A DNA stretch of 64,000 bases from Myxococcota bacterium (GCA_035541475.1 DATKND010000172.1:5040-69039), one strand, 5' to 3'; shown: positions 5,966 through 54,803, counted from the stretch's first letter. Numbers and translations are program-made. The notes: a model not told the origin generated them from the letters alone.

Positions 5966-6207
5966 CCCGAAGCAACTCGCGCTCGCGTTCGCGCGCGGTC
6001 GAAACTGATCGGTACCGCGACGCGCCGCGTCGAGTCGCGCGCGAGCCGCGCACGAACGGTGTCGTTCGTCGAAAAATCGGATGACACCTCCGTCGCGACG
6101 GGTGTAAAACAATGCCCGGGAAAAGCGCCGGGACGGAGTTCACTGCGAAGCAGGCGGTGTGCTGCCGCGCCCGCTCGGTTGCAGACACGCAGACACGAGG
6201 AGGGTTC

Positions 6208-9200
6208 ATGGCGGGTGCCGCTGCGAGTCGAGGGTTCGCGCGCTGTCTCTCGCTCGCCGCACTGGCCGCCGCGAGCCTCGCGCTGACTGCGAGCGGCGCG
6301 CGCGCGATCGAAGCGCTCGACGGACGCTTGCAGTTCCACGGCTACGCCGAGATGCAGCTGCGCGCGCTCGACGAGAAGTTCTCGCAGGAGCTCGACCTCT
6401 CGCAGTGGTACAACGTCCTCAACCTCGAGCTCGAGTTCGACATCGCGCCCGACGGCATCGGCCCGATCAACCTGATGTCGGCGTACGTCCGCGCCGAGGC
6501 CCGCTACGACGCGATCTACAACAACGGCTTCTACATGTTCCCGTCGATCGACACGTACGGGAACGCCTCCAGGAACCTGCCGAAGCGGCTGCGCGACGCC
6601 GAGACCAAGCAGATGGGCGGCGTCATCAAGACGGTCGATCGCTTCGGCGAGTTCAAGACGCAGCGCATCACCAACCGCGATCCGTTCCCGATCGCGCCGC
6701 CGGTCCAGACCGTTCCCGGCTCGAACATCGACATCGGCCACGGATTCAATGATCCAACCGCCGAGAGCCTGTACCCCGACGGCCTCAACGTCGCGAAGGG
6801 CGGCCCCGACGAGATCCCGGCCGACGGACGCCAGAGCGACTACGGCATGCGCCGCGGCTACCCGGGCTTCGACACGTTCTTCACGCAGGCCGGACCCGAC
6901 AACCAGTTCGGCACCGACGACGACCCGGCTCGCTACGTGATGCGCCACGTGCGCGACTTCGAGTTCACGTTCAAGGACATCCGCGGCCCGCTCGGCAACG
7001 ACACGATGATCATGGGCCCGTGGCTGCCGAAGAACTTCATCACGGCCAATGCGCTGAACACCGATCGCGGCAATCCGTTCCGCGGCCGCATCGCGCCGAC
7101 GCCGCCGATGCTGCTCAACAACTTCTTCATCAATCAGAGCTTCGGCGACGCGCAGATCGGCGCGATCCGCTTCCACGAGGGCGACCTGATCGTCAATCCG
7201 GCGGCGCTCGCGTCGACCATCCCGCTGCCCGCGCCGGGCGAGCTGAGCTACGCCAAGATCGACATCCTCGATCCCACGCTCATGCGCATCCTGACGGCGC
7301 CCGGCCAGGTCCCGACGAACGCCGCGACGGTCAACCCGAACCTCGTCTACCTGGACCTGCGCGGCTTCCCGGTTCTCGGAGGGCCCAACGGCGGGACAAT
7401 CCCGGCCTTGCTCAGCGCCACCTTCCCGGGCCGTTGGACGTACTCGTCGTTCTCCTCGACAGGCGTCACGGCCAACACGCTGCTGACGGACGACGTCGGC
7501 GGCGACTTCATGGGCGGCATCGTGCCCTGCGCCGACCCGACGGTCCAGCCTGCGAACCACATTGCGAACTCCTACCGCGCGGGCACCGCTCCGACGCCTC
7601 CGGATAGCCTGTGCGTCGAGAGCGCGAGCACCGGCGGAGGTCCCGGACCCGGCACGACGGGCCAGACCGGCGGCACGCCGGGCAACCCGGCGAACGTCGA
7701 CCCGGGCGATCCGAAGGGCTCCTACACGTCGCCGGGTCTGACAAAGATGACGGGCGGCTTCAGCCAGATCGTCTTTCAGAACGGCCAGTTCGTGCTCCAG
7801 ACGATTCCCGACAACCACGGCGAGACGCCCTTCCGCCCCGCGCCGGATCTCCCGAACCTGGGCCAGCGCCTGATCGCGCGCGACAGCACGGGCGCTCTGA
7901 TCGACATGGGCCAGGTCCCGAATCTCAACCAGAACCACGATCAGGCGCAGGGCCTGTACATCCCGAGCAAGGGCGCGCTGCGCGAGATCCGCAGCGACCA
8001 CCTCGACAGCCTCGAGTTCAACTTCGACGAGACCGATCGCGCCTGGAACCACGGGCAGGACCAGCAGGAGAACCGGGAGCTGAAGGAGGCCTACACCGAC
8101 ATCGAGGTGCTCGACAGCCGCCTGTGGATGCGCCTCGGCCTCCAGAACATCGTGTGGGGCAAGACGGAGCTCTTCCGCACCACCGACCAGTTCAACCCGC
8201 AGGACCTGGCGCTCTCCTCACTGCCCTCGCTTGAGGAGTCGCGCATCGCGCTGTGGTCCGCGCGCTTCGTCTACTCGCTCTACGACATCGGCCCTCTCGA
8301 GGACGTCCGCGCGGAGTTCGCGATGAACCTCGATCAGTACAAGCCGAACGACCTCGGCGCCTGCGGCGAGCCCTACACGCCGGACGTCGTCTGCACGCTC
8401 ACCAACGGCATCTTCGCCCACGGCCTCGTCGGCGTCGGCGTGATCGGCATCGACCGTCCCGAGGCCCCGTGGAAGAAGCTCAGCGACCTCGAGTTGGGCG
8501 GCCGCATCGAGTGGCGCTGGGACCGCTTCAGCTTCGCCCTGATGGACTTCTGGGGCTTCAGCGACTTCCCGCACCCGGAGGCGCAGTGGTACTACGACCG
8601 CTCGGTCGACGTCGACACGGGTCGCCCGCTGGTCGGCGTGCTGCCGACCCAGCAGCCCGGGAAGTGCGGCGCCTTCGCGGGCGAGAGTGTCGTCGACACC
8701 ATGAACGCGACGGTGAACGGTGTGGCGACCAAGCCGTTCGTGCCGAGCAATACCCCAGGCTTTGCACCGGTCAACATCGCCTACAACTCGTCGTTCGCGT
8801 CGCACCCCTTCTCCGTCACGACCGGCGCACCGGTGCTCGACCCGCTCGCGCCCGGCTTCACGACCTTGAAGCGCGGCGGCATCGGGCGCGATCCAGACTG
8901 CCTGCGGCCGGGCGGCGCGCCGGGCAGCGCAAACGCCTTCGCGTTCGACCAGGACATCCTCGCCCAGACCAACGCCCTCTACAATCACTCGGTCAACCAG
9001 CAGATCTTCGCATGGATCTGCGCGGGCACGATCGGCATCGCCGCAAGTCTCGATGCAGGCTCCTGCGCCTGGACCATCTTCGCCAGCGACGCGGTGCTGC
9101 AGAAGCAGCTCCTGCCGATCTCGTTCGTCGAATCGCTCACGACGTTGTTTGCCGGCGAGCAGTCGGGCAGCGCGGGCCCGCCCCAGTTCATGGGCCTCAT

Positions 9201-11304
9201 CGCGAACACCATCAAGACTACACAAGCTGCCGCGGGCATGTCGGCCTTCCCGTTGGCATCGCTGAACATGCTCTACAACAACCCGGCCGCGCCCTTCGAC
9301 CGCAACGGAAACGGCGTGGTCGACCGGACGAACTGCAACGACGCCACGAATCTCAGCAACTGCGATCTCGGCGGCTTCGACGGATTCGACGGCCGCGTGC
9401 AGATCAACGGCCGGCAGCCCGCGGCGGTGAATGCCAACCAGGTCTCGGGCTTCATCACGCTCGACCAGTCGCTCACCAACGAGCAGCGCGCGCTGCTCGG
9501 CTGCGGTCCGTTCTATGGCAGCCGCTGCGACTCCTCGCTGCGCTACCGCGACACGAATCGAGACACCTACTTCGGCAGCTATGGCGGCCTCGACTTCATG
9601 AACATGGAGGCCTCCGCCCTGGTGCAGTCGTGGCCCGGCGTCGAGGGCACCGTCAAGACCGACACGACGACCTCGAACAAGATTCAGCCGGGCACCGTCG
9701 GCTGGGTTCCGACCATGGACGATCGCGGCAGCTTCAACAACGGCATCGGCGGTCCGATCTGCACGCACTTCGTGATGAGCGAACACCGCGAGGTGAAGCT
9801 TCCCGGCTGTCGCGGCGTGCAGACGCTCCAGGTCACCCATACGGCGAACGGCGATCCAGTCGTCCTGGTCTCCTTCGAGCAGGGCTACCTGCCCTCGATC
9901 GACGGCTGCGTGATCGGCACGCAGATCAACAATCCGGGTCACAGCCCGGTGCAGGTGGTGTTCGACCCGAACGGGCCCGCGCCGAGCGCGCAGCTCAAGA
10001 CGGAGCTCGGCTTGTGCAACGGCGCGCGCACGAAGCAGGTCCAGCCGCGGCGCGTCATGATCTTCAACCCGGATGGAACACCGGTCACGGTGAACGGCCA
10101 GCCGCAGTTCACGGCCGCCAACCCGTGTACAGGGGTGGGCAACATCGGCATCGGGCCCGGCTTGCCGGACGACCCGCTTCGCGTCTGCAACGCAAAGACG
10201 GTCACGTTGCAGGATCTCCCTCTCTTCCATCCGACGGCCGGCTGCGTTGCCTCCGGCTTCTCCTTCCAGGTGCCGGGGGCCACGCCCGACGACTGTCGCT
10301 ACTGGATGTACCGGAACTACGTGCAGGAGTTCTTCAACGGCACCGCGCAGCTCTTCCAGAACGAGTTGGCGGCCTTCTCGTGGAACTTCCTGATGTTCCT
10401 GACCTTGACGTCCTGCAACCTCACGAGCTTCGACCTCGACGGCAACGACCACCTCCTGACGAACGGCGGACCGCGCTCCCAGGGGCCGGGGCCGGCCGGT
10501 CCGGGCGACCCGAACTGCTTCGACCCGAACAATCCCTACACGAAGGGACGTTGCTCGATCTCGACGCCGGAGTTCTGCACGAACGTGAAGGGCTTCCTGA
10601 CGGCGGCTGGCGTCGAGAAGAACACCGCGCTCGCGGGCGGCAACAACCGCTTCGGACGCCGCACCTTCATCTGGGACAGCGGCGGCGAGCTCACGCTCGA
10701 CTACCAGCAGCGCAACGTGCTCGGTCTCTCGTCCGACTTCGCCGAGGACCACACCAAAACCAATTGGGGCGTCGAGTTCACCTACATCGGGAAGGAGCCG
10801 TTCCAGGACAACGCCTCGATGGTGGGCGTGAGCCAGTCGTCGTCGCTCAACCTGACGGTCTCGGTCGATCGCCCGACCTTCATCAACTTCCTGAACCCGA
10901 ACCGGACCTTCTTCTTCAACAGCCAGTGGTTCTTCAACTACCTGACGAACTACCACGACACCTACAACTTCGACGGTCCGTTCAACGTGCTCTTCACGTT
11001 CGCGATGTTCACGGGCTACTTCCAGGACCGCGTGCAGCCACAGCTCGTCACGGTCTTCGACTTCAAGTCGCAATCCGGCGGCCTGCTGCCATCGTTCCAG
11101 TACCGCTTCACGGATTCGTTCTCCGTGACGATCGGGACGTTCTACTTCTTCGGCCACACGGAGCTGAAGGACATGCCCGTGCGCGACTTCGCCCCAGCCG
11201 CGAACCGCTCGGGCGCGAACGCCTACGAGAACGGCGTGGACAACATCCTCGCGTTGATCCGCCAACGCGACGAGGTGTTCATGCGGCTCAGGTATACGTT
11301 CTAG
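6208..11304 (+). CDS. giant DUF1302-like outer-membrane beta-barrel protein with two large Cys-rich insertions
   Basis: Frame of ORF 6112..11304. ATG 6208 follows GAGGAGGG. Signal peptide ends ...LTASGARA. DUF1302-like islands are IEALDGRLQFHGYAEMQ, WMRLGLQNIVWGKTELF and NSQWFFNYL. The C-terminus ...MRLRYTF ends in Phe (OMP beta-signal). I count 24 Cys in the mature part. Confidence 0.75.
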   Translation: MAGAAASRGFARCLSLAALAAASLALTASGARAIEALDGRLQFHGYAEMQLRALDEKFSQELDLSQWYNVLNLELEFDIAPDGIGPINLMSAYVRAEARYDAIYNNGFYMFPSIDTYGNASRNLPKRLRDAETKQMGGVIKTVDRFGEFKTQRITNRDPFPIAPPVQTVPGSNIDIGHGFNDPTAESLYPDGLNVAKGGPDEIPADGRQSDYGMRRGYPGFDTFFTQAGPDNQFGTDDDPARYVMRHVRDFEFTFKDIRGPLGNDTMIMGPWLPKNFITANALNTDRGNPFRGRIAPTPPMLLNNFFINQSFGDAQIGAIRFHEGDLIVNPAALASTIPLPAPGELSYAKIDILDPTLMRILTAPGQVPTNAATVNPNLVYLDLRGFPVLGGPNGGTIPALLSATFPGRWTYSSFSSTGVTANTLLTDDVGGDFMGGIVPCADPTVQPANHIANSYRAGTAPTPPDSLCVESASTGGGPGPGTTGQTGGTPGNPANVDPGDPKGSYTSPGLTKMTGGFSQIVFQNGQFVLQTIPDNHGETPFRPAPDLPNLGQRLIARDSTGALIDMGQVPNLNQNHDQAQGLYIPSKGALREIRSDHLDSLEFNFDETDRAWNHGQDQQENRELKEAYTDIEVLDSRLWMRLGLQNIVWGKTELFRTTDQFNPQDLALSSLPSLEESRIALWSARFVYSLYDIGPLEDVRAEFAMNLDQYKPNDLGACGEPYTPDVVCTLTNGIFAHGLVGVGVIGIDRPEAPWKKLSDLELGGRIEWRWDRFSFALMDFWGFSDFPHPEAQWYYDRSVDVDTGRPLVGVLPTQQPGKCGAFAGESVVDTMNATVNGVATKPFVPSNTPGFAPVNIAYNSSFASHPFSVTTGAPVLDPLAPGFTTLKRGGIGRDPDCLRPGGAPGSANAFAFDQDILAQTNALYNHSVNQQIFAWICAGTIGIAASLDAGSCAWTIFASDAVLQKQLLPISFVESLTTLFAGEQSGSAGPPQFMGLIANTIKTTQAAAGMSAFPLASLNMLYNNPAAPFDRNGNGVVDRTNCNDATNLSNCDLGGFDGFDGRVQINGRQPAAVNANQVSGFITLDQSLTNEQRALLGCGPFYGSRCDSSLRYRDTNRDTYFGSYGGLDFMNMEASALVQSWPGVEGTVKTDTTTSNKIQPGTVGWVPTMDDRGSFNNGIGGPICTHFVMSEHREVKLPGCRGVQTLQVTHTANGDPVVLVSFEQGYLPSIDGCVIGTQINNPGHSPVQVVFDPNGPAPSAQLKTELGLCNGARTKQVQPRRVMIFNPDGTPVTVNGQPQFTAANPCTGVGNIGIGPGLPDDPLRVCNAKTVTLQDLPLFHPTAGCVASGFSFQVPGATPDDCRYWMYRNYVQEFFNGTAQLFQNELAAFSWNFLMFLTLTSCNLTSFDLDGNDHLLTNGGPRSQGPGPAGPGDPNCFDPNNPYTKGRCSISTPEFCTNVKGFLTAAGVEKNTALAGGNNRFGRRTFIWDSGGELTLDYQQRNVLGLSSDFAEDHTKTNWGVEFTYIGKEPFQDNASMVGVSQSSSLNLTVSVDRPTFINFLNPNRTFFFNSQWFFNYLTNYHDTYNFDGPFNVLFTFAMFTGYFQDRVQPQLVTVFDFKSQSGGLLPSFQYRFTDSFSVTIGTFYFFGHTELKDMPVRDFAPAANRSGANAYENGVDNILALIRQRDEVFMRLRYTF

Positions 11305-11328
11305 CAATCCGCCGCGCGGCGCGGCTGG

Positions 11329-12798
11329 CTAGTGCAAGCGATCGAGCACCGCGGGTGACGTGAGGCGGTGCAGCTCCGAGTCCTCGGGCGGCGTCGACAC
11401 GATGTCGTAGCTCTCGCGGCGCCAACCGCTGCCGCCCTCGAGCGCGTCGTAGAAGACCTCCGCGACCGGATCGAAGACGTTGGCCTTCGCGCCGCCGGGC
11501 CAGTCCGGGTAGCGCGTCAGGTCGCCGCTGTAGCGCGACACCAGGATGCCCACCTCCTCCATCTGCTGTCCACCCTTGCGGCGCGTCACGACGTAGAGGG
11601 GCTGCCCCGTCTGGTAGTCGATCCAGAGCGTCAGGAAGTCGTACTCGAGTCCGCGCTCCTTCAAGGTGCCCTGCAGCACGACCGCGTAGCGGACGTCCCA
11701 GCGGTCGTTGCCGACCGAGAGCCCGCTCTCGCCGAAGTTGCGGTTGCGATCCTCCGGATAGCCGGTGCGCGTGATGTTGATCGGCGCGAGCACCACGCGT
11801 TCGCTCTGTAACCGCCAGATGTAGGCGTTCGGTCGCAGCGAGAGGCCGGTGAAGCCGCGGCGCAGGTTCTCCGTCACCTGGATCGACTCGCCGGCCGTCG
11901 GATTGATCGCGCCGTTGGTCGCGATGCCGCCGCCGATCGGGAGCGCGCCGCCACCGGCGTCGCCCGACACGCGGTAGCGAGGCATGTAGAGCCCGTCGAC
12001 CCAGCCGGATCCCGCGCGGCGCATCTTCTTCATCGTCGGCACGTACACGAAGGTGTCGTCGGGGCGCTCGTAGTCCAGCGCGACCTGGAGCGGCCGCAGC
12101 TGCCGCCAGGCGAGATTGCGCGCGGGGGTCGGCTCGGCGAAGTAGCCGCCGGCCACCCACTCGGTGTCCGGCGCAACCGGGAGCGCGTAATTGCTCGCGG
12201 CGAGATCCGCGCGGTGGCTCGTCTGGAGCCAGAACCAGTTGCCCTCGTAGGTCTGGATGCCGCCGACGCGGCTCGGCATGTCGACGAGGCGGAACTTGCC
12301 GATCGGTCCGGAGCCCCGGTAGCGAAGCTCCGCGTTCCAGGCCCAGCGAACCGCCGCGTCGGGCGACGCCGGATCGATCGTGTCGGGCGGGAAGGGCAGG
12401 CCGGCGACGTAGCCGCGCAGGTTGCCGTCCTCGTCGACCTTCGCCTGACCCGCGAAGCGCTTCGTCGCTGCGTCGTACCACTCGGCGGTCGCGTAGCGGC
12501 GGTGGCAGGGCCCGATCTCGAGGCGCATGCCGTCGTGGAAGAAGGTGTCGCGGTTCCTCCAGACCTCCGGCGGCAGCAGGCTGCCGAGCAGCAGCACGTC
12601 CTCGAAGTGCAGCTCGATGCCCTCGCGCAGGCGGAACGAGGTCGCGTCCTCGGCCGGGCTCGCCCCCGGGATGTTGGTCAACACGGGGCACTCGTTCTCG
12701 GGCGGGAGGCCTCCGCCTGCGGCGGCCGCCCCCGCCAATAGCAGGGCGAACGCGACGAGGCCTCGCGAGACGCGTGAGCGCGCGCGGATCCAGAACAT
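11329..12798 (-). CDS. DUF1329-family (LolA-like) periplasmic protein
   Basis: 489-aa ORF. Signal peptide MFWIRARSRVSRGLVAFALLLAGAAAAGG. GYVAGLPFPP motif and an overall DUF1329-like sequence. Its stop lies 24 nt from the DUF1302-like stop (convergent). Confidence 0.8.
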   Translation of the reverse strand: MFWIRARSRVSRGLVAFALLLAGAAAAGGGLPPENECPVLTNIPGASPAEDATSFRLREGIELHFEDVLLLGSLLPPEVWRNRDTFFHDGMRLEIGPCHRRYATAEWYDAATKRFAGQAKVDEDGNLRGYVAGLPFPPDTIDPASPDAAVRWAWNAELRYRGSGPIGKFRLVDMPSRVGGIQTYEGNWFWLQTSHRADLAASNYALPVAPDTEWVAGGYFAEPTPARNLAWRQLRPLQVALDYERPDDTFVYVPTMKKMRRAGSGWVDGLYMPRYRVSGDAGGGALPIGGGIATNGAINPTAGESIQVTENLRRGFTGLSLRPNAYIWRLQSERVVLAPINITRTGYPEDRNRNFGESGLSVGNDRWDVRYAVVLQGTLKERGLEYDFLTLWIDYQTGQPLYVVTRRKGGQQMEEVGILVSRYSGDLTRYPDWPGGAKANVFDPVAEVFYDALEGGSGWRRESYDIVSTPPEDSELHRLTSPAVLDRLH

Positions 12799-13804
12799 GG
12801 GGGGCAGCCTCCGGGTTGCGACGCGGCGACGCGGTCGCGCCTACTTTACCCTGCGCCTGGAGCTGGATCGCGCCGTGCGCCGTTCGATCGGACTTCCGCT
12901 CGCGCTCGGGATCGTGCTGGTGATCCTGCTGCTGGCCCTCGCCGTCGGCTGGCAGATCCTCGTGGTCGCCAACCCGCGCCCCGGCCTCTCGTCGCTCGAC
13001 TGGGCGCTGCTGATCCTCGGCACGCTCTTCTTCGCCCTCGTGCTGGCGGGGCTCGTGTGGCTCTCGACGTGGCTGATCCGCGAGATGCGGCTCAACCAGC
13101 GCCAGCGCGCCTTCCTCGACGCCGTCACGCACGAGATGAAGACACCGCTCGCGTCGCTGCGGCTCTACGTCGACACGTTGACCCGCCACGATCCGGAGCC
13201 CGAGCGGCGGCGCCACTTCCTCGCGCTGATGCAGGACGACCTCGCCCGCATCGATCGCACCGTCGACCAGGTGCTCACGGCCGCGCGCGCCGAGGAGCCG
13301 GGCCGGCGCGCGCAGCGCGGGCGCGTGCGGCTCGCCGGGGTCCTGCGCGACTGCATCCGCGAGGTGCAGAGCCGCCACGCGCTGCCGGACGAGTCGATGC
13401 AGCTCGAGTGCGCGTCGGATCCGGCGGTGCGCGGCGACGCCGGCGAGCTCGGCGTGGTGTTCCGCAACCTGCTCGAGAACGCAGTGAAGTACTCCGACGC
13501 GCCGATCGAGGTGCGCGTGCGCGTGGCCGAGATCGGCGGCGACCGCGTCGACGTCGACATCTCGGATCGCGGCATCGGGATCCCGGCGCGCGAGCTCCGC
13601 AAGATCTTCCAGCGCTTCTATCGCGCCGGCCGCGACGTGCAGCGCACGGCGGCGGGCCTCGGCCTCGGTCTCTTCATCGTGCGCAACCTGGTGCGGCGCC
13701 AGGGCGGCCGCGTCGTGGCGAAGAGCGAGGGCTCCGGCGCGGGCAGCCGCTTCGTGGTGACGCTCCGCGCGGCGGCAAGCGCGGCGGAGCCGCGCGCGCA
13801 GTGA
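12797..13804 (+). CDS. sensor histidine kinase (two TM segments, HisKA + HATPase_c)
   Basis: Frame of ORF 12527..13804. H-box FLDAVTHEMKTPLASL, N-box FRNLLENAVKY, G-boxes DRGIGI and GLGLGL. Start is either ATG 12797, which overlaps the divergent DUF1329 ATG, or in-frame GTG 12875. Confidence 0.85.
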   Translation: MGGSLRVATRRRGRAYFTLRLELDRAVRRSIGLPLALGIVLVILLLALAVGWQILVVANPRPGLSSLDWALLILGTLFFALVLAGLVWLSTWLIREMRLNQRQRAFLDAVTHEMKTPLASLRLYVDTLTRHDPEPERRRHFLALMQDDLARIDRTVDQVLTAARAEEPGRRAQRGRVRLAGVLRDCIREVQSRHALPDESMQLECASDPAVRGDAGELGVVFRNLLENAVKYSDAPIEVRVRVAEIGGDRVDVDISDRGIGIPARELRKIFQRFYRAGRDVQRTAAGLGLGLFIVRNLVRRQGGRVVAKSEGSGAGSRFVVTLRAAASAAEPRAQ

Positions 13805-13829
13805 GCCGCAGGCGAACGGAGTTCAGAAG
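13803..13829 (+). repeat. 27-nt direct repeat, copy 1 (overlaps the kinase stop codon)
   Basis: gagccgcaggcgaacggagttcagaag. Matches 25 of 27 positions with copy 2 at 14598. Confidence 0.8.
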
Positions 13830-13870
13830 GGAATGACGCCGTCTGCAGAAAGGTCGGGGAGCGCTTTGCC

Positions 13871-14569
13871 ATGGCGCGGATCCTCGTCGTCGAGGACGAA
13901 GAGCATCTCGCCGAGGGACTCCAGTTCAACCTCGAGGCCGAGGGCCACGAGGTGGTGGTCGCGTCCGACGGCTCCGACGCGAGCGAGCGCATCCTCGCGG
14001 GGGGCGGTGGCTTCGACCTCGTGCTGCTCGACCTGATGCTCCCGGGACTCTCGGGCTTCGAGGTGCTGCGCCGCATTCGCGCGGCCGGCGTCTTCGTGCC
14101 CGTGCTCGTGCTGACCGCCAAGGACGAGACGGCCGATCGCGTGCGTGGTCTCGAGGAAGGCGCCGACGACTACCTCACGAAGCCCTTCCACCTCGACGAG
14201 CTGCTCGCGCGCGTGCGCGGTCTGTTGCGGCGCCGTCGCTGGGACGGCGCGTCGGAGCCGGCCGCGACTCCGCCGCTCCAGATCGGCGTCGCGACGGTGC
14301 ACTTCGACCGCTTCGAGCTCGAGACGCCGCAGGGGACGATCCGTCTCACCACGCGCGAGCTCGGTCTCCTGCGCGCGCTCGCCGACCGCGAAGGCGAAGC
14401 GGTGACGCGCGGCGAGCTGCTCGAGTCGGTCTGGGGACTTCGCCCCGACACGAACACGCGCGTGGTCGACAGCTTCGTCGTGCGGCTCCGCCGCTACGTC
14501 GAGCCGGATCCGTCTCGTCCTCGCCACATCGTGTCCGTTCGCGGTCACGGGTATCGCCTGGTGAGGTAA
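13871..14569 (+). CDS. OmpR/PhoB-family response regulator
   Basis: 232 aa. MARILVVEDEE, receiver Asp in VLLDLMLPG, TKPF, and a winged-helix C-terminus ...VRGHGYRL. Confidence 0.9.
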   Translation: MARILVVEDEEHLAEGLQFNLEAEGHEVVVASDGSDASERILAGGGGFDLVLLDLMLPGLSGFEVLRRIRAAGVFVPVLVLTAKDETADRVRGLEEGADDYLTKPFHLDELLARVRGLLRRRRWDGASEPAATPPLQIGVATVHFDRFELETPQGTIRLTTRELGLLRALADREGEAVTRGELLESVWGLRPDTNTRVVDSFVVRLRRYVEPDPSRPRHIVSVRGHGYRLVR

Positions 14570-15509: not shown

Positions 15510-16181
15510 TCACTCCTCTCCGGCGCGCAGCGCCGCTCCGACGTACACCGTCGCGAGGATCGTGAAGATGTACGCCTGGAGCAGGCCGATCAGCAGGTCG
15601 AGCGCCATGAGCGGCATCGGCACCAGGAAGCCGGCGAGCGCGACCAGCAGCGCAACCACCAGGTGTCCGGACATCATGTTGCCGAAGAGCCGCATCGAGA
15701 GCGCGAGCGTCCGCGACAGCTCCGAGATCGCGTGGAGCGGCGCGAAGAGCGGATTGGGGCGGAAGTAGCTCCGCAGGTAACCGCGCAGGCCGCGCGCGCG
15801 GATCCCCGCGGCGGGTACCGCGAGGAACACGATCGCGGCCAGCGCCGAGGTGGTGGCGAGGCTCGCGGTCGGCGGACGTACGCCCGGGAGCTGGCCCGAG
15901 AGATTGCAGGCGGCGATGAAGAGGAAGAGGCTGCCCGAGAGCGTCGCCAGGCGGGGCTCTGGGCGCCCCGCCACGTCGCGCACCAGCCCGTCGATCCATT
16001 CCACCGCCAGCAGCGCCAGCGCGGCGGGCGTGCCGTTCGGCGCGCGGCGCACGCCGCGCGCCAGCGCCCACGCGAGGAGCAGCAGCGCGAGCGAGATCAC
16101 GAGCGACGTGACCATCGTGGTGGTGATCGGTACGGGGCCGATGGCGAAGAGCGTCTGCTCGCCGAAGATCCGGATCTCCAC
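15510..16181 (-). CDS. atpB: ATPase Fo subunit a
   Basis: Frame of ORF 15510..16310. GTG 16181 (VEIRIFGEQ...) lies 2 nt after the upstream stop. Contains the conserved LSMRLFGNMMSGH arginine motif and a multi-TM profile. Confidence 0.85.
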   Translation of the reverse strand: MEIRIFGEQTLFAIGPVPITTTMVTSLVISLALLLLAWALARGVRRAPNGTPAALALLAVEWIDGLVRDVAGRPEPRLATLSGSLFLFIAACNLSGQLPGVRPPTASLATTSALAAIVFLAVPAAGIRARGLRGYLRSYFRPNPLFAPLHAISELSRTLALSMRLFGNMMSGHLVVALLVALAGFLVPMPLMALDLLIGLLQAYIFTILATVYVGAALRAGEE

Positions 16182-16183
16182 GG

Positions 16184-16455
16184 TCAGCTCCGATGCTCGC
16201 GGATCGCGCGCCAGGCGATCGCGCAGCCGAGCGCCAGGCCTGCCACGAGCAGCATCAAGGTGAAGCGCACGCCGCTCTCGAAGCGGGAATCGAGGTGGTG
16301 TCCGAGCCATGCGCCGCCCGCTGCCGGCAACGCGATCGACCAGCCGATCGTGCCCAGCGCGGAGAGCGAGCGCCAGAAGGAGGATCCCGACGGATCCCTG
16401 CGCGCGAGCCGCCTCGCATCGCGCTCGAGCGAGCGCTGCGCGTCGTCGCGGCGCT

Positions 16456-16459
<4 letters not shown>
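16184..16459 (-). CDS. AtpZ/AtpI-family small membrane protein (AtpQ-like)
   Basis: Within ORF 16184..16837. GTG 16459 overlaps the atpC stop (GTGA). VKRRDDAQRSLERDARR... is followed by two hydrophobic helices (SLSALGTIGWSIALPAAGGAWLG, FTLMLLVAGLALGCAIAW). Confidence 0.6.
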
Positions 16460-19064
<2,605 letters not shown>

Positions 19065-19068
<4 letters not shown>

Positions 19069-20573
19069 CGCGCCGGCTCCTGCGCGGCCGCGCGGACCTG
19101 CTGCGCGAGCGCGCGCAGTCGCTCCAGCGAGGCGTCGGAGGCCTCGTCCTGCTCGATCGCGGCGGCGACGTCGGGAGCGTCGCTCCGCACGCGAGCCAGC
19201 AGCCTCGCGACGAAGGGCGGAGCCTGCTCGGGAGCCAGTCCGTCGACCCAGCCCTCGCTCACCGAGAGGACGCACAGGAGCTCCTCGCACCGGCCGCGAG
19301 GCGCGAGTCGGCGCTGGCGGAGCAGGGCCCGCAGCAGCCGACCGCGCGCGATGTCGCGCTCGACACCCGGGTCGAGCTCGAGCCCGACACGCGAGAGTGA
19401 CTCGAGCTCCTCGAAGCGCGAGTACAGGATACGGAGGTTGCGGGCGGCCTCCCGGATCGCGCGCGGCTGCGCGGCGCCGCCGATGCGCGACACGCTGCGG
19501 CCGATGTCGACCGCCGGCCGCTCGTTGCGCGCGAAGCGCGCGCCGTCGAGGTAGATCTGTCCGTCGGTGATCGAGATCGCGTTGGTCGGGATGTAGGCTG
19601 CGATGTCACCCTCGGTGGTCTCGACGATGGGCAGGGCCGTGACCGTGCCGCCGCCGGCCGCGCGGTTGCGCGCCGCCGCGCGCTCGAGCAGCTCGGCGTG
19701 GAGGTAGAAGACGTCGCCCGGAAACGCCTCGCGTCCGGGGGGTCGCTCGAGCAGCAGGCTCAGCTCGCGATAGGAGTCGGCGTGCTTCGTGAGGTCGTCG
19801 TAGACGACGAGCGCGTGCCCACCCTGGTCGCGGAACCACTCCGCCACCGACGCTCCGGCGTAGGGCGCGAGATAGCGCATGCCGGGCGGCATCGACGCGT
19901 CCGCGGCCACGATCGCGGTGTTGGGGAGCGCGCCCGCGCGCAGCAGCGTCTCGCGCAGCGCCATCACGCGCGAGATCGGCTGTCCCACCACGACGTACAC
20001 GCAAGCGACGTCACCGGCTCTCTGGGCGACCACGAAGTCCTCGGCGAGCGCGGTCTTGCCGGTGTTGCGATCGCCGATGACGAGCTCGCGCTGGCCGCGG
20101 CCGATGGGGATCGCCGCGTCGACGACCAGCACTCCCGTGTGCAGGGGCATCTGCACGCGCTCGCGCTCCACGAGCTCGGGAGCGGGGCGGAAGAGCTCGC
20201 GCCGCGGCAGGTCGGGCAGGGTGCCGTTGCCGTCCAGCGGACGGCCGAGGGGGTCGATCACGCGGCCGAGGGTGGCCGTCCCGACCGGGAGCGCGGGAAG
20301 CTCGCCGGTGGCGAGCGCGCCGTCGCCCGCCTGCACGGTCTCGGCGTCCGAGAGCAGAAGCACGCCGGTCGTGTTCGCACGCAGGTCGAAGGCGAGGCCG
20401 AGCGCGCCGCAGTCGAATCGAACCAGCTCGTCGTAGGCCACGCGTTCGAGCCCGGCCACGCGGGCGACGGCGTCGCCGACGCTCGTCACGATCCCGCGCG
20501 GGCGCAGCGCGGCGCCGAATTCGAGCTCGCGCGCCGCACGCAGCAGCGACGCTCCGCCCTGCGCGTCAGTCAT
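19065..20573 (-). CDS. atpA: ATPase F1 subunit alpha
   Basis: 502 aa. Walker A GDRNTGKTALA, plus VVYDDLTKHADSYRELSLLLERPPGREAFPGDVFYLH. Confidence 0.95.
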
Positions 20574-21300
20574 GACCGGCCGTCGTCTCCTCGAGTCGGC
20601 TCACGAGCAGCCGCTCGGCCTGCGCGGAGGCGCCCGCTGCGGTCGCATCCACCAGTCCGCGCGCGGTGTGGACGCGCAGCCCGGCGATCAGCTCGGGATT
20701 CAGCCGCTCGCTCGCTGCGCCGTTCGGCGCGCCCGCCGCCGACAGCACGCGCGCGCGGGATTCGGGCGCCAGCGGCTCGACCGATTCGATCACGATCGGC
20801 GCGAGCGCGCCTCGCTCGCGCAGGCGCTCGAGCTCGCGGCAGGCGGCGCCGGCGAGCATCTCCTCGAGCTCGGGCCCGCGGATCTCGGCGAGGAGCTGTC
20901 GCACCACCTCGCGCGCCGCACGGGCGGCGTCGCGCGCGCCGGTGCGCACCTGCTCCCGGCGCTGCGCGAGCAGCTCCTGCTCGAGGCGTTTGCGTTCCTG
21001 CTGCATCTCCGCGCGCGCGTCGGCGAGCGTTCGCTCCTTCTCGGCCTCGAGCTCGCGCGACAGCCGTTCGCGCAGCGCGTCGAGCTGTGACTCCTGCTCG
21101 CGCCTCTGCGCGAGCGCCTGCGCGCGCTCGTGCTCGGCCTGCTCGCGCGCGGCGGCTGCGGTGCGCTGCTCGCCCTCGATCTGGCTGCGGCGCCGCTCGA
21201 TCGCTGCGCGCACGGGCCGGAAGAAGAGCCAGCCGAGCAACGCCGCCAGCAGCAGGAAGTTCGCCGCTTCGAAGGCGAAGGTGGCCCAGCTCTCCGACAC
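20566..21300 (-). CDS. atpF: ATPase Fo subunit b, long form with a delta-like C-terminal segment
   Basis: 244 aa. One N-terminal TM (FEAANFLLLAALLGWLFF), a long charged coiled coil, and a C-terminal LIAGLRVHTARGLVDATAAG segment resembling the delta/OSCP C-terminus. No separate delta gene is present. Confidence 0.75.
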   Translation of the reverse strand: MSESWATFAFEAANFLLLAALLGWLFFRPVRAAIERRRSQIEGEQRTAAAAREQAEHERAQALAQRREQESQLDALRERLSRELEAEKERTLADARAEMQQERKRLEQELLAQRREQVRTGARDAARAAREVVRQLLAEIRGPELEEMLAGAACRELERLRERGALAPIVIESVEPLAPESRARVLSAAGAPNGAASERLNPELIAGLRVHTARGLVDATAAGASAQAERLLVSRLEETTAGHD

Positions 21301-21928: not shown

Positions 21929-23155
<1,227 letters not shown>

Positions 23156-23180
23156 GATCCCTCCTCCGCGCGGCGCCGCG

Positions 23181-24266
23181 CTAGACGAGCGAGAGGCCCT
23201 CGAAGCAGGCGAAGCCGCGTGCGTTCCGCAGGCACAGCTCCGGCAGGTACTCGCGCGTGTAGCCGTGGCCGCCGAGCACCTGCACGGCGGCGTCGCTCAC
23301 CTCGAGCGCGACCTTCTGCGCCTGCCGGTGCGCGAGGAACACCGCGCGCGCCGCGTCGCGCGCGGTGTCGAGGTGCCAGGCCGCCTCCCATACGAGCAGG
23401 CGCGCCGCGTCGATCTCGATCGCCATGTCGGCGAGCTTGAAGGCGATCGCCTGCTTGGTCGCGATCGGCGCGCCGAACGCCCGACGCTCCTTCGCGTAGT
23501 CGCGTGCGACCTCGTAGGCCGCGCGCGCGACCCCGATCGCCATCGCGCCCTGCGCCACGCGCCCGCGCTGCACGACCGAGGCGAGGCCGTCGCGGGCGGG
23601 GGGCAGCGCGTCGTCGGCCGCCACGCGCACGGCCTGGAGCGAGAGCTCGACCGTCGGCAGCGCCTGGATGCCCATGTAGCGCGCCGGCGTGGCGCGCAGC
23701 CCCATGGCCTGGCGCGCCACGCGGAAGAGCTGCGGGCCGGTGTCGCCCGTGGCCGACACCAGCACGTGATCGCCGCCCTCGACCCAGGGCACGAGGCACT
23801 TCTCGCCGTCGAGCCGGTAGCCGGCGCCGTCGCGGCGCGCGCGCGTGTGCGGCGTCAGCGGATCCGCGCCGTAGTGCGGCTCGACGAGCGCGAGCGCGCC
23901 GGGCCGGAAGCGCTCGCCGACGAGCCCCGGCAGCCAGAGCTGCTTCTGCGCGTCGCTCGCGAGATCCGACACCGGGACGCTCTCGAGCGACGGCGACAGG
24001 ATGGCCGCCGCGATCGAGAGGTCGCCCCACGCGAGCTCCTCCGCGACGAGCGCTCCCGTCAGCGCGCTGCGTTCGCCGCCGCCGCCGAAGCGCTCGTCGA
24101 TGCCGCTCGCGACGAGTCCGAGCGCGTGCGCTTCGTGCAGCAGCTCCGCGGGCAGCTTCGCGGCCTCGTCGCACTCGCGCGCGCGAGGTCGCACCTCGTT
24201 CCGTGCGAACTGTCGCACCGTCTCGACGATGAGCTGCTGCTCTTCGCTGGGATCGAAGTCGATCAC
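23181..24266 (-). CDS. acyl-CoA dehydrogenase paralogue (shorter, 361 aa)
   Basis: Within ORF 23181..24743, with GTG at 24266 (VIDFDPSEEQQLIVETVRQFA). ACAD fold motifs LVEPHYGAD and GGHGYTREYLPELCLRNARGF. Ends shortly after FEG. Confidence 0.85.
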   Translation of the reverse strand: MIDFDPSEEQQLIVETVRQFARNEVRPRARECDEAAKLPAELLHEAHALGLVASGIDERFGGGGERSALTGALVAEELAWGDLSIAAAILSPSLESVPVSDLASDAQKQLWLPGLVGERFRPGALALVEPHYGADPLTPHTRARRDGAGYRLDGEKCLVPWVEGGDHVLVSATGDTGPQLFRVARQAMGLRATPARYMGIQALPTVELSLQAVRVAADDALPPARDGLASVVQRGRVAQGAMAIGVARAAYEVARDYAKERRAFGAPIATKQAIAFKLADMAIEIDAARLLVWEAAWHLDTARDAARAVFLAHRQAQKVALEVSDAAVQVLGGHGYTREYLPELCLRNARGFACFEGLSLV

Positions 24267-24426
24267 GGAGTCCTGCGCTGCGCTCCGACCGGCGCACGCG
24301 CGCCGCGCGCTCAGACGATCTGTGCGAAATCGCTCACGAAAAAGCGCGCGCGAGTCTATCAGCTCGAAGCCTTCGTCGCAGCGCGCGCAGAGGTGTCGTC
24401 GAATGCGAATTTCTCCTTGACGCGAC

Positions 24427-24455
24427 GGGGCTTCCGGGATATCACACCGCGCGTT
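24427..24455 (+). promoter_or_regulatory. candidate sigma70-type promoter for the act operon
   Basis: TTGACG (24427-24432), 17-nt spacer, TATCAC (24450-24455). About 150 nt upstream of the actA ATG, inside a 336-nt divergent intergenic region. Confidence 0.35.
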
Positions 24456-24602
24456 TCGGTGGCCGCGCAGCTCGCGCGCGTCGGTCTCGGTCTCATCCCC
24501 AAGGCGACTGTGCTCTCGCATCCGCGTCCATGCGGCGCGTCGGGCCGTCGCGCACTCCCGCCCACTCCATCCGCCTGGTCCACGAGAGAAGACCCACCTC
24601 GC

Positions 24603-25328
24603 ATGAAGCCGAGCCCGCTCCACGCCCTCGTCGCCGCGCTCGGCGCGCTCGGCGTATTCTCGCTGTGGACGGGTCTCGGCGCGTCGCGCGTGGAGGCGGC
24701 CGACGACGGCCCGCTCGTCGCGCACAGCGTTTGCGAGGCGCACGAGCTCGAGGCGCGCAAGGCCGCGGACCCGAGCTTGCAGATCGAGATCCCTCAGGAG
24801 TTCGCGTCGCCGTGGCCGAGCCGCGCGGCGTGTCTCTCACACACCGCGGCCGAGGATGCGTCGACGCCGGGGCCGGTGCAGCCCATTCCCTTCAGCCACA
24901 AGCACCACGCGGGCCTCTTCCAGATCGATTGCCAGTACTGCCATACCGGCACCGATCGCTCGCGAGCGGCGGGCGTCCCGTCGGTCCAGCTCTGCATGGG
25001 CTGCCACTCGCAGTTCCCGCCGACCTACGACGAGCTCGCCGGCATCCGCACCTTGAAGCAGCACTGGGAAGAGAAGAAGACGATCGAGTGGGAGCAGATC
25101 TACCGGCTGCCCGAGTACGTCAAGTTCCAGCACCGCGCCCACGTCCAGAGGGGCGTTGCCTGCCAGACCTGCCACGGCCCCATCGAGGAGATGGACAAGG
25201 TCTACATGACCTCCGACACCGTGTGGTGGCCGTGGCTGCTGCCCGCTCACAAGCCCGAGATGGGCTGGTGCATCGACTGTCATCGCCGGAACGGCGCCAC
25301 GCAGGACTGCCAGGCCTGCCATTACTAG
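24603..25328 (+). CDS. actA: alternative complex III, pentahaem cytochrome c subunit ActA
   Basis: Within ORF 23133..25328, with ATG at 24603. Signal/anchor MKPSPLHALVAALGALGVF. Five CxxCH motifs: CQYCH, CMGCH, CQTCH, CIDCH, CQACH. Confidence 0.9.
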   Translation: MKPSPLHALVAALGALGVFSLWTGLGASRVEAADDGPLVAHSVCEAHELEARKAADPSLQIEIPQEFASPWPSRAACLSHTAAEDASTPGPVQPIPFSHKHHAGLFQIDCQYCHTGTDRSRAAGVPSVQLCMGCHSQFPPTYDELAGIRTLKQHWEEKKTIEWEQIYRLPEYVKFQHRAHVQRGVACQTCHGPIEEMDKVYMTSDTVWWPWLLPAHKPEMGWCIDCHRRNGATQDCQACHY

Positions 25329-25352: not shown

Positions 25353-28300
25353 ATGTCCGAGATCGATCGACGAGAGTTCCTGAAGATCGTGGGAGTGGGC
25401 GCCGGCGCCGCCGCCGCGGCCGGCTGCTACCGCTATTCCGAGCTGCCCGAGAAGCTGATCCCCTACGTGATCCAGGACGAGGAGATCATCCCGGGCCTCC
25501 CGGTCATCTACGCTTCGACCTGTCAGGAGTGCAGCGCGGGCTGCGGCGTGCACGTGCGCACGCGCGAGAGCCGCCCGATCAAGCTCGAAGGCAACCCGCA
25601 GCACCCGATCAACCGCGGCAGCTTGTGCGCGCGCGGTCAGGCGGGAATCGGTCGCACCTATCATCCGGACCGCTACGTGGGTCCGTTGCAGCGCGGATCC
25701 GACGGCGCGTTCGCGAAGACGACGTGGGACGACGCGCAGCACACGGTCGCGGCCCGGATCGCCGCCGCGCAGGGGAAGGTGGCGGTGCTCGGCGCCCCGA
25801 CCGGCCCCGCGCTCTCGCGCCTGATCGACGCCTGGCTCGCGGCGGTCGGCGGCGGCTCGCGCGTCGTGTACGAGCCCTTCGCGCGCGAGGCGCTGCGCGA
25901 GGCCACCTCGGCCGTCTTCGGCGTGGCCAGCGAGCCGATCTTCGACCTCGAGGGCTGCGATCTCGTGATCGACTTCGGCGCCGACTCCGTCGGCGGCAGC
26001 GGTCGTTCGCCGGTCGAGCACGCGCGCCAGCTGATGGCCGCGCGCGACGTCGCGAAGGAAGAGGGGCGCGCCTCGCGGCTCGTGTACGTGGGCCCGCGCC
26101 TCGACGAGACCGCCAGCGTCGCCGACGAGTGGCTTCCGGCGAAGCCCGGCAGCGAGGGCGTGCTCGCGCTCGCGGTGGCGCGCGTCGCCTTCGAGACGCG
26201 CTCGAAGGGCGCGCCCGGCTCGGAGGCGTCGCTGCAGGGCGTGCTCGCCGGCTTCTCGCCGGAGAGCGCGGCCGAACGCACGGGCGTGTCGGCCGACGCG
26301 ATCCGGCGGCTCGGGCGCGCGGTCGCCGCGGCGAAGAAGGCGGTGGCGCTGCCGCCGGGCGTCGCGCTGACGAGCCGCCGCGCGGTCGCGACCAACGCCG
26401 CAGTGCTCGTGCTCGACGTCGTGGCCGGCGCGGTCGGCACGTCGCTGCACATCCCGCCCGCGACGGAGACGCGCGTCGCCAGCTTCCGCGACGCCGTGAA
26501 GCTGATCGACGCGATGAAGTCGGGCGACGTGAAGGTGCTGCTCGTCCACGGCGGCGCGAATCCCGTGCACACGCTGCCCCCGGACTCCGGCTTCACGGCG
26601 GCGCTCGAGAAGGTCGGGACGGTGGTGTCGTTCGCGTCGCTGCCGGACGAGACGAGCGAGCGCGCGCACTTCGTGCTGCCCGACCACACGCCGCTCGAGT
26701 CGTGGGGCGACGCCGCGCCGCGGCCCGGCGTGCGCTCGCTGGTGCAGCCGACGATCCGCCCGCTCTTCGACACGCAGGCGCTCGGCGACAGCCTGCTCGG
26801 CATCGCACGCGCGATGGGCGACGGCGTGGCCGGCTCGCTGCCGGCCGGCTCGTTCCGCGGCGTGGTCGAATCGGCCTGGTCGGGGACGTCGCTGCGCGCG
26901 GCGCTCGAGCGCGGCGGCGAGTTCGGCGAGGGCAGCTACGCGTCGCCGTCGCTCTCCGCGAGCCTCGCACGCATCGAGTGGCGCGAGCCGCAGCTCGAGG
27001 GCGAGGGCGAGTTCGTGCTGCTGCCGGTTCCGTCTCCGCTGCTCGGCGACGGCAGCGGCGCGCACCTTCCCTGGCTCCAGGAGACGCCCGATCCGATCAC
27101 GAAGATCACCTGGCAGTCGTGGGCCGAGATCAGCGAGCGCGCGGCCGCATCGCTCGGCGTGCGGCCGGGCGACGTGCTGAAGGTCGAGACGCCCTTCGGC
27201 TCGCTCGAGGTGCCGGTCTGGCCGCGCGGCGGCATCCGCGACGACGTGATCGCGGTGGCGATCGGGCAGGGCCACACCGTCGGGCGTTACGCCGCGGTGC
27301 AGACGCCGGACGGGTCCAGCGCGCCGCGCGGCGTGAACGTGATCTCGGTGCTGCCGTCGCTGACCGACGAGGCCGGCGGGCGCGCCTGGCTCGCCGCGAA
27401 GGCGCGCGTCCGCGCCGCCGGCCGCTTCGAGCGCCTGCCCTTCACGCAGGAGACCGACGACAAGCGCGGCCGCATGCTCGGCGAGGCGATTTCCCTGGTC
27501 GCGCTCGCCGAGGGCGGACCGTCGCCGTGGGCGCCGAACCAGGCCGCGGCGGTGGTCGATCACGGCACGCCGATCACAGGCGCCGCGGCCGCCGCTACCC
27601 CTCTGGGCGAGGTCGCACCCGGAGAGCACGCGGGCGAGGGCGACAAACATCACGAGCCCGAGATCCTGCGCGCCTACGACGCCGTCGCCGACTCGCTGCC
27701 GACCGATCCCTTCCGATGGGGCATGACGATCGACGTCGACCGCTGCACCGGCTGCAGCGCCTGCGTGGTCGCGTGCTCGATCGAGAACAACGTCCCGATC
27801 GTCGGCGAGACGCAGGTGAAGCGCGCGCGCATCATGTCGTGGCTGCGCATCGAGCGCTACGTCGGTACCGGCGAGCCGACGCTACAGCCTGCCCGCCCGG
27901 GACCGCAGAACCACGAAGAGCTCGGCAAGACCGATGTGCGCAACTCGCCGATGCTGTGTCAGCACTGCGGCGCGGCGCCCTGCGAGCCGGTCTGCCCCGT
28001 GCTCGCGACCTATCACTCGCCGTCCGGCCTGAACGGCATGATCTACAACCGCTGCATCGGCACGCGGTACTGTTCGAACAACTGTCCCTACAAGGTGCGG
28101 CGCTTCAACTGGTACGACTACCAGATCGAGACCTGGCCGCAGCCGCAGCCGCTGATGCTGAATCCGGACGTCACGGTGCGCGCGCAGGGCGTGATGGAGA
28201 AGTGCACCTTCTGCATCCAGCGCATCCAGGCCGGTCGCCTGCTGGCGAAGACCGAGGGCAACGCGACGCCCGCCGACGGCGCCGTGAAGACGGCCTGCCA

Positions 28301-28481: not shown

Positions 28482-28488
28482 GGACCGC

Positions 28489-44669: not shown

Positions 44670-44745
44670 TGGCTCCCCGGGTAGGACTCGAACCTACGAC
44701 CCGGCGGTTAACAGCCGCCTGCTCTGCCAGCTGAGCTACCGGGGA
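44670..44745 (-). tRNA. tRNA-Asn (anticodon GTT), CCA encoded
   Basis: Reverse complement reads TCCCCGGTAGCTCAGCTGGCAGAGCAGGCGGCTGTTAACCGCCGGGTCGTAGGTTCGAGTCCTACCCGGGGAGCCA. Cloverleaf with 7-bp acceptor stem, GTTCGAG T-loop and anticodon loop CTGTTAA. Confidence 0.95.
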
Positions 44746-51319: not shown

Positions 51320-51410
51320 AGGCGACTCCGACGTCCCCAGATTACCACCGTAGCCCCGAATCGCGGCGCCGCGAGCGCGCCCGCCGGAACGCAGGGCGGA
51401 GGGCGGGGAG

Positions 51411-51487
<77 letters not shown>

Positions 51488-54792: not shown

Positions 54793-54803
54793 CGCTGGCC
54801 CCT

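Follow-up and report, generated by a model that had tools for sequence, protein, structure and literature searches.

A 64,000-nucleotide (nt) stretch of DNA from a Myxococcota bacterium (GCA_035541475.1, DATKND010000172.1:5040-69039), hereafter the window, encodes a 1698-residue outer-membrane protein that is very probably a single β-barrel of the DUF1302 family carrying two expanded loops. The window has a guanine-plus-cytosine (GC) content of about 72%, and all coordinates are counted from its first letter. The barrel gene (6208..11304) converges on a gene for a DUF1329 protein, a LolA-like periplasmic partner, which in turn stands back-to-back with genes for a histidine kinase and an OmpR-type response regulator. 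We propose that the two inserts, which together amount to about 1,190 residues (roughly 500 + 690), fold into a cap above the barrel and that the capped barrel and its DUF1329 partner take up a hydrophobic molecule, a statement to which, taken as a whole, we give a probability of about 45%.

DUF1302/DUF1329 is one of the larger outer-membrane families without a structure or a biochemical function. Canonical DUF1302 proteins are described as 18-strand barrels of their own type with no solved structure (PMC13499233; bioRxiv 10.64898/2026.03.07.710327; bioRxiv 10.1101/2022.04.13.488089), and surveys of transmembrane barrels treat DUF1302/DUF1329 as a barrel type of its own (bioRxiv 10.1101/2022.04.13.488089). 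NCBI already labels proteins of the present kind from metagenome-assembled genomes (MAGs) as "DUF1302 family protein"; the long form is not described in the papers that we found mentioning DUF1302, which are few.

The barrel, its inserts and the putative cap

The barrel gene lies in an open reading frame (ORF), 6112..11304 on the plus strand, whose GC content at the third and second codon positions (GC3 0.92, GC2 0.47) is typical of coding sequence at 72% GC and singles out this frame as coding. Within it, ATG 6208 is favoured as the start because GGAGG lies 6 nt upstream, because the same methionine begins the homologues and because the in-frame ATG at 6112 falls inside the predicted leader. 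As read from the sequence, the product starts with a Sec signal peptide ending in ...SGARA, continues with IEALDG at the mature N-terminus and ends in ...FMRLRYTF. Both the signal peptide and the C-terminal aromatic beta-signal are kept in 70+ homologues, and the family as a whole retains IEALDGR as the mature N-terminus. A prediction made from the sequence before this analysis (hereafter the original prediction) had described a secreted protein of 1698 aa at this place, and the ORF, the signal peptide and the terminal-Phe beta-signal were all found.

The intact protein matches the Pfam DUF1302 model (PF06980) only at an island in the middle barrel segment (aa 620-693, containing WMRLGLQNIVWGKTELF; 30.1 bits against a gathering score of 23.2). 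When aa 136-590 and 801-1465 are excised in silico and the remaining aa 33-135, 591-800 and 1466-1698 are joined, the resulting 546-aa construct matches in one stretch, with its residues 37-546 aligned to profile positions 81-541 of 541 (43.6 bits, expectation value (E) 2.8e-11). The three segments are thus collinear with one DUF1302 domain, which argues that the two blocks between them are true insertions. The expectation that the termini of the protein would match DUF1302 fails for the intact protein, in which the island alone is detected, and holds once the inserts are excised and the ends join the alignment. The 1698 aa depart from the several hundred residues typical of the family (profile length 541), and this is a departure in size and not a failure of homology. 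Neither the barrel protein nor its DUF1329 neighbor has a family in NCBIfam, and PDB sequence searches with the barrel protein, including one with a 62-sequence profile, returned nothing.

A natural short homologue, P0069 (1031 aa), has the same three segments with smaller inserts. Its AlphaFold2 model, built from a 72-sequence alignment, has a mean predicted local distance difference test score (pLDDT) of 84.9 and a predicted template modeling score (pTM) of 0.88, and runs through three long strands, insert 1 (aa 97-333), the middle strands, insert 2 (aa 505-822) and 9-10 strands to the C-terminus; 18-20 long strands were counted from its DSSP string, without coordinates. The N-terminal barrel segment of the window protein aligns to the model strands at 34-49, 58-75 and 82-96. 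Foldseek comparison of the model with the PDB returned only outer-membrane barrels (Omp36, FadL, OmpC; E about 4e-4, about 220-280 columns) and no match for the inserts. Collinear construct and homologue model thus agree with the original prediction of a single DUF1302 barrel with two loop insertions. The two blocks stand, and their positions, given as 130-690 and 900-1470, are corrected to about 102-600 and 796-1489.

The nearest folds for canonical DUF1302 are reported to be AlgE and the Occ channels (PMC13499233). The 18-stranded barrels of the AlgE/OccAB type, FadL and the porins have the outer-membrane beta-barrel fold in common with the P0069 model, whereas the alignments extend over about 220-280 columns at template modeling scores of 0.24-0.33 normalised to the target, without a sequence relationship, and none of these proteins carries loop insertions of hundreds of residues. 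The DUF1302 barrel thus accommodates loops enlarged by 500-700 residues, an unusual trait among outer-membrane proteins.

Strand parity in the P0069 model suggests on which side of the membrane the inserts lie. Insert 1 comes after strand 3 when the strands are numbered from the periplasmic N-terminus. The last strand has to finish in the periplasm, and numbering backward from it puts insert 2 ahead of a downward strand. Both inserts would therefore follow odd-numbered strands, and since the two counts agree they are placed outside the cell, as an outward-facing cap. The predicted fold of aa 290-1489 of the window protein (pLDDT 75.5, pTM 0.82) is consistent with a compact assembly of the two inserts. 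Foldseek assigned no fold to this fragment against the PDB (best E 0.29, with matches to MALT1 and BamA rejected as noise), and no relative of the cap could be detected in Pfam, in NCBIfam or in the PDB.

The protein has 25 cysteines, one in the signal peptide and 24 in the mature chain, of which 20 lie in block 2, two in block 1 and two (719/729) in a loop of the middle barrel segment. The original prediction had counted 24 cysteines, almost all in near-neighbor pairs, and placed them within the two blocks; count and pairing are borne out, and the location is amended, with 20/24 in block 2 and one pair outside both blocks. In the 62-sequence alignment, Cys 820, 898, 938, 953, 1107, 1449 and 1457 are invariant and most others are present in >90% of sequences, and the cysteines that are absent go missing as sequential neighbors (pairs in Table 1), the pattern of gain and loss predicted by nearest-neighbor disulfides. 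The barrel segments are 46-92% identical across homologues (61-92% for the N-terminal and 52-92% for the middle segment), whereas the inserts drop to 10-30% with many indels, except in the core at aa ~1077-1245, as expected for exposed surface loops. Insert 1, which contains a disordered Gly/Pro/Thr linker at about aa 476-536, is the most variable part (10-69% identity, many indels).

Barrel-less relatives indicate that the cap can stand by itself. Block 2 matches 213 of 1.84 billion representative clusters at E <= 1e-3, and 12 of the 61 representatives of at least 900 aa lack any barrel segment; these 12 have signal peptides of their own, some of them lipoprotein-like. Several end in C-terminal Asp-rich repeats resembling thrombospondin-3, which are typical of myxobacterial surface proteins. 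In P0060, P0064 and P0068 (~1210 aa), block 1 (query aa 287-607) is fused directly to block 2 (query aa 796-1467) with no barrel, so that the two blocks share one compartment and probably form one unit; the existence of such secreted copies marks the cap as an autonomous extracytoplasmic module. Barrel-less proteins (P0060/P0064/P0068, P0079, P0082, P0083 and others) have the blocks in common with the window protein at 46-52% identity, with the same conserved cysteines, and differ from it in the missing barrel segments, the fusion of the blocks, the separate signal peptides and the thrombospondin-3-like repeats. Conserved cysteines that covary in sequential pairs, and blocks found fused in secreted paralogues, support the disulfide-stapled surface modules of the original prediction.

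The sorting of the barrel-less proteins calls for caution. A PEP-CTERM match in P0060, P0064 and P0079 lies at aa ~170-194 of ~1210-1240 and not at the extreme C-terminus, for which reason PEP-CTERM/MYXO-CTERM sorting was rejected; the database name of P0060 stems from this internal motif (aa 170-192), its gene model is uncertain, and the window protein has no such motif. In P0060 (locus L084, 10001..13630), as in P0064, P0068 and P0079, the motif is followed by RRRRR and then by a lipobox-like AALVAAALVAIGC, an arrangement conserved in diverged copies; either the gene call joins two genes, or the sorting signal is an unusual, internal one. Barrel-less paralogues also match the MtsC cell-cohesion model in their repeat part only, at 19-38 bits against a cut-off of 350.

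Gene neighborhood and distribution

The DUF1329 protein matches PF07044 with 70 bits (cut-off 23.1) and PDB sequences at chance level only. Its gene is separated from the barrel gene by 24 nt, as the original prediction had it, and the palindrome in this gap (Table 1) is a possible bidirectional hairpin with no U-tract, reported by neither the terminator scan nor the repeat finder. DUF1329 adjoins the barrel gene at 27 orthologous loci, convergently at 26 and co-directionally at one (L023). As the identity of the flanking proteins falls from 95% to about 60%, the genes keep their order: FG-GAP protein, HIT, topoisomerase I, giant DUF1302 (+), DUF1329 (-), kinase, regulator, PAC2.

The kinase begins at about GTG 12875, leaving 76 nt to the start of DUF1329 (a longer ORF from 12527 overlaps the DUF1329 gene), and its HisKA domain directly follows the second transmembrane (TM) helix, with no periplasmic sensor domain, HAMP or PAS. 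It resembles intramembrane-sensing kinases that depend on accessory proteins, and no NCBIfam equivalog reaches its cut-off for the two-component system. The domains and the divergent arrangement with DUF1329 are as predicted from the sequence. The kinase adjoins DUF1329 at 20 of the 22 loci with enough sequence; an extra barrel gene displaces it in L025, and L073 lacks it. In L023 the genes for barrel, DUF1329, kinase, regulator and PAC2 all point the same way, less than 90 nt apart. No kinase accompanies the divergent DUF1329 copies of L017 and L064. The DUF1329/kinase intergenic region contains a conserved -10-like box.

The barrel gene has a sigma-70-like promoter. At its matching position, AAATCCGTTGT...GGGTATAAATGC is present in the orthologous loci; 13 of 24 orthologue upstream regions contain the -10-like word, as against 4 of 69 paralogue upstream regions (background 0.03 per kb). 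The leader hairpin of the window is a version of a conserved G-rich word, GGGGGAA[AG]; promoter and word are both strongly enriched over background and over paralogue upstream regions. The combination is specific to the barrel gene of the topoisomerase I locus and is found upstream in L007, L011, L022, L034, L062 and L065. The generic promoter scan did not report this promoter because it demands T at position 6 of the -10 hexamer, and Rfam has no match in 5900-6300, leader included. To judge from its sequence, the promoter looks autonomous and probably strong, and gives no sign of control by the regulator; no conserved regulator box is common to the barrel upstream and DUF1329/kinase intergenic regions, and GCGACGCG repeats considered as such a box are not kept in relatives. 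Of the regulated system that had been predicted, the link to the kinase and regulator is supported as an adjacency of genes only; the synteny from topoisomerase I to PAC2 also fits vertical inheritance, and the barrel has its own near-consensus promoter.

Protein searches returned 78 relatives of 967-2461 aa; the few that bear names, all from Myxococcota MAGs, go by "DUF1302 family protein", "PEP-CTERM sorting domain-containing protein" or "hypothetical protein" only. Exact matching of the window protein against public assemblies yielded no record. Species-representative genomes hold at least 247 loci, nearly all in MAGs whose label reads Myxococcota, Myxococcaceae or "delta proteobacterium", and one contig has at least four. 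Genomes hold several paralogues each, which recalls the expansion of nutrient receptors elsewhere. In 85 loci we counted 103 long DUF1302-like ORFs, whose median length is 1109 aa and every one of which has the block-2 core. The rarity that the original prediction implied is thus not borne out: long forms of about 950-2460 aa, none of them characterised, are the rule in this lineage, and the 1500-1700-aa class that includes the window protein (P0001-P0033) is its most elaborate branch.

The same slot can hold more than one barrel gene. In L007, L071, L038 and L055 it contains two tandem DUF1302 genes of ~1000-1350 aa, and in L017 several DUF1302 genes in a row precede a co-directional DUF1329 gene that sits beside a topoisomerase I fragment. 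Tandems of two to four long DUF1302 genes before a single DUF1329 gene (L007 7908..14196; L071 7830..14429; L017 889..11255; L025 3..11201) raise the possibility that one DUF1329 protein may serve several barrels. An origin of the 1698-aa gene by fusion of two tandem ~1000-aa genes was rejected, as the gene contains a single set of barrel segments and stands about equally close to the two tandem copies.

Outside this locus the neighbors are heterogeneous. At 45 paralogue loci without topoisomerase I, profile search found no DUF1329 ORF (L064 gave a weak co-directional tblastn match) and a conserved partner was not found; the neighbors include WS/DGAT, enoyl-CoA hydratase, thiolase-like, SDR, acyl-CoA dehydrogenase, PhyH, P450, acyl-CoA synthetase and AcrB proteins. 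The neighborhood survey thus upheld the DUF1329/kinase synteny at the orthologous locus and gave no common partner at the paralogue loci.

The canonical pairs (Pseudomonas putida PP_0765/PP_0766 and Shewanella amazonensis Sama_1588/Sama_1589) belong to the same Pfam families and likewise place barrel and LolA-like partner side by side with a regulator nearby. The window protein differs from them in being about three times as long, with ~1,190 residues inserted in two loops as a putative Cys-rich cap for which the Pfam model has no counterpart; its partner is convergent rather than in an operon; its regulator is of the OmpR-type two-component kind rather than LuxR/AraC; and the long barrel is multicopy, mostly partnerless and restricted to an uncultured Myxococcota-like lineage.

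Proposed uptake and competing explanations

We tentatively propose an uptake route for this system, and hold it somewhat less probable than the statement as a whole. Extracellular loops at two points, behind about strand 3 and behind the middle barrel segment, would have been expanded, and the two inserts would fold together above the barrel as a cap braced by up to 12 disulfides. At the cell surface, this cap would catch a hydrophobic or lipid-like molecule of poor solubility; the barrel would move the molecule across the outer membrane, and DUF1329 would take it into a hydrophobic cavity and deliver it onward. Pairing of the two proteins is in keeping with an AlphaFold-Multimer interface pTM of 0.84 for DUF1302-DUF1329, obtained for canonical members only (PMC13499233). 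That the cargo may be hydrophobic is suggested by three lines of published evidence: P. putida requires its DUF1302/DUF1329 genes to grow on Tween 20 and butyl stearate (bioRxiv 10.1101/2020.07.04.188060); the family is cofit with a BNR protein and a COG1033 RND exporter and occurs in aromatic, steroid and terpene catabolic clusters (bioRxiv 10.1101/072470); and DUF1329 is LolA/LolB-like (bioRxiv 10.1101/072470). Enzymes of lipid metabolism are also found among the neighbors of the paralogues listed above, and the window itself holds acyl-CoA dehydrogenases and an acyl-CoA synthetase. AupA/AupB were considered and rejected, as they do not belong to DUF1302 and the literature describes AupA as FadL-like.

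Several observations weigh against this proposal. Positions 1-80 of the DUF1302 profile are unmatched by the barrel protein and the N-terminal segment alone gives no match; the barrel model is that of the 1031-aa homologue and not of the 1698-aa window protein; and the outward orientation of the inserts is read from strand parity and not from coordinates. The cap, being without a relative in fold or sequence, gives no pointer to a binding pocket, and the capped long subfamily is known here from sequences and models. The barrels are multicopy, but a DUF1329 gene accompanies them at the conserved locus alone, apart from rare co-directional cases, so that most paralogues are without a dedicated partner. 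Around the 45 paralogue loci, 131 neighbor ORFs contain 157 Pfam families, none more than four times, and the lipid-metabolism flavor of these neighbors was seen without a background control. Finally, Price et al. proposed export and not uptake.

In the hypothesis of Price et al., DUF1302, DUF1329, a BNR protein and a COG1033 RND exporter act together, and these four are cofit in Shewanella, Kangiella and Pseudomonas (bioRxiv 10.1101/072470). Here, barrel, DUF1329 and an inner-membrane pump of the MMPL/RND type would export an envelope lipid or hydrophobic product, with the cap as exit chamber. The resemblance of the DUF1302 fold to the alginate exporter AlgE (PMC13499233) agrees with this, as do the WS/DGAT wax-ester synthases adjoining three paralogues and an MMPL transporter in the window (51577..53949) that is convergent with a LolA_like protein. 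That transporter, however, lies 40 kb off and has its own LolA-like partner, and no BNR/Ycf48-like gene was found near either pair among the window ORFs scanned; a large, variable, ligand-facing cap fits capture better than release, and the Pseudomonas phenotypes concern esters that must enter the cell. We therefore regard export as unlikely. To an equal degree we doubt that the barrel serves as an anchor for surface display, with the cap as an adhesin or a matrix- or cell-contact module and the paralogues differing in specificity, even though the cap module is also secreted or anchored without a barrel (together with the thrombospondin-3-like repeats and their weak MtsC match, or with the internal PEP-CTERM-like motif), the inserts vary faster than the barrel, and most paralogues have no DUF1329 neighbor. 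The barrel segments are the best conserved parts and keep the DUF1302 signature, which points to a role beyond anchoring; that the ancestral locus keeps the barrel paired with a LolA-like carrier speaks for transport; and the MtsC matches are far under their cut-off.

Signaling across the envelope offers a further explanation, in which the cap would bind an external cue that DUF1329 relays to the sensor-less kinase. The Cycloclasticus proteins PahS, PahP, PahK and PahR (an outer-membrane protein with protruding loops, a periplasmic binder, a sensor-less kinase and a regulator; PMC10570129) are a precedent with an alike gene set, and the outside loop of only ~11 residues in the present kinase, its place directly after DUF1329 at nearly all informative loci and the tightly spaced co-directional genes of L023 would suit such a switch. 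PahS and PahP, however, are from different families, neither of them DUF1302 or DUF1329, which limits the resemblance to one of logic; the whole interval from topoisomerase I to PAC2 is syntenic, so that the adjacency may be inherited; one locus lacks the kinase, another has a gene inserted between, and the divergent DUF1329 copies have none; and the two intergenic regions have no regulator box in common. We consider this explanation very unlikely. A broader and slightly less improbable version, still doubtful, would make the cap a previously undescribed, new-fold, autonomous extracellular ligand-capture module. It would occur in two formats, split in halves between separate loops of a DUF1302 barrel or secreted as a free or anchored protein, and at the ancestral locus the capped barrel would form, with DUF1329, kinase and regulator, a capture-and-signal pathway for insoluble lipid-like substrates; if true, this pathway would be the first mechanistic model for the dark DUF1302/DUF1329 family.

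Compared with these alternatives, uptake by a capped barrel remains our preferred reading, in which the hydrophobic or lipid class of the substrate, the direction of transport and a role for the adjacent kinase and regulator are all conditional. Two routes to experiment follow: the disulfide-rich module is separable, and the barrel-less paralogues could supply it in soluble form as a handle for ligand screening; and the role of DUF1329 could be approached by tests of its conserved pairing with a sensor-less kinase.

Coordinates and other features of the window

Table 1. Features of the barrel gene, its partner and the adjacent two-component system (coordinates in the window; cysteine pairs by residue number)
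Feature	Position	Strand	Details
Sigma-70-like promoter of barrel gene	6081..6110	+	ATGACA-N18-TAAAAC, AT-rich island in 72% GC DNA
Leader hairpin	6115..6132	+	CCCGG-GAAAAGCG-CCGGG
Giant DUF1302-family outer-membrane protein gene	6208..11304	+	1698 aa plus stop
Signal peptide	6208..6306	+	aa 1-33, cleavage after ARA (sequence reading)
Barrel segment N	6307..6510	+	aa 34-101, about 3 strands
Insert 1	6511..8007	+	aa ~102-600, G/P/T/D-rich, Cys pair 441/469
Barrel segment M	8008..8592	+	aa 601-795, about 6 strands and a helix, Cys pair 719/729
Insert 2, Cys-rich putative cap module	8593..10674	+	aa 796-1489, 20 cysteines, conserved core aa ~1077-1245
Barrel segment C	10675..11301	+	aa 1490-1698, about 9-10 strands, terminal-Phe beta-signal RLRYTF
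Gap between convergent genes	11305..11328		24 nt, GC palindrome GCCGCGC-G-GCGCGGC
DUF1329 (LolA-like) periplasmic partner	11329..12798	-	489 aa, signal peptide, no lipobox
Histidine kinase	12875..13804	+	HisKA and HATPase_c, two TM helices, ~11-residue outside loop
OmpR/PhoB-type response regulator	13871..14569	+	receiver and Trans_reg_C
Cys pair 719/729			presence/absence agreement 1.0 (62 sequences)
Cys pair 1185/1201			presence/absence agreement 1.0 (62 sequences)
Cys pair 441/469			presence/absence agreement 0.95 (62 sequences)
Cys pair 1307/1327			presence/absence agreement 0.94 (62 sequences)

The MMPL-family RND transporter mentioned above (plus strand, 790 aa, 125 bits) is a candidate inner-membrane partner of the DUF1302/DUF1329 pair. 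The LolA_like protein on which it converges (53956..~54750, minus strand) matches PF17131 with 114 bits and DUF1329 weakly; its domain lies at the C-terminal end of a long spurious ORF (53956..56205), and its true start is uncertain.

To the right of PAC2, and before the acyl-CoA dehydrogenases, an ATP synthase cluster (15510..21300, minus strand) encodes b/delta-like, alpha, probably gamma, beta and epsilon subunits, with the a subunit last, and may be an extra, atypically ordered ATPase operon. Loci L003 and L005 have no ATP synthase cluster at that place and L001 has different genes after PAC2, which marks the region as variable among relatives. Two acyl-CoA dehydrogenases, an oxidoreductase set and an acyl-CoA synthetase occupy 21929..24743 (-), 25353..29856 (+), 30346..30921 (+) and 35887..37686 (+); the set, which comprises a molybdopterin/4Fe-4S oxidoreductase, an NrfD-type membrane subunit and a cytochrome c, is alternative-complex-III-like, and the block of dehydrogenases and oxidoreductase is syntenic in L003.

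Two transfer RNA (tRNA) genes, at 44673..44745 and 51414..51487, both on the minus strand, score 65 bits each with Rfam. The second overlaps the N-terminal extension of a BFN-domain gene called as the longest ORF (50804..51538), which indicates that this gene starts further in. The minus strand also encodes, at 47003..48418, a membrane adenylate/guanylate cyclase with sCache-like, HAMP and cyclase domains.

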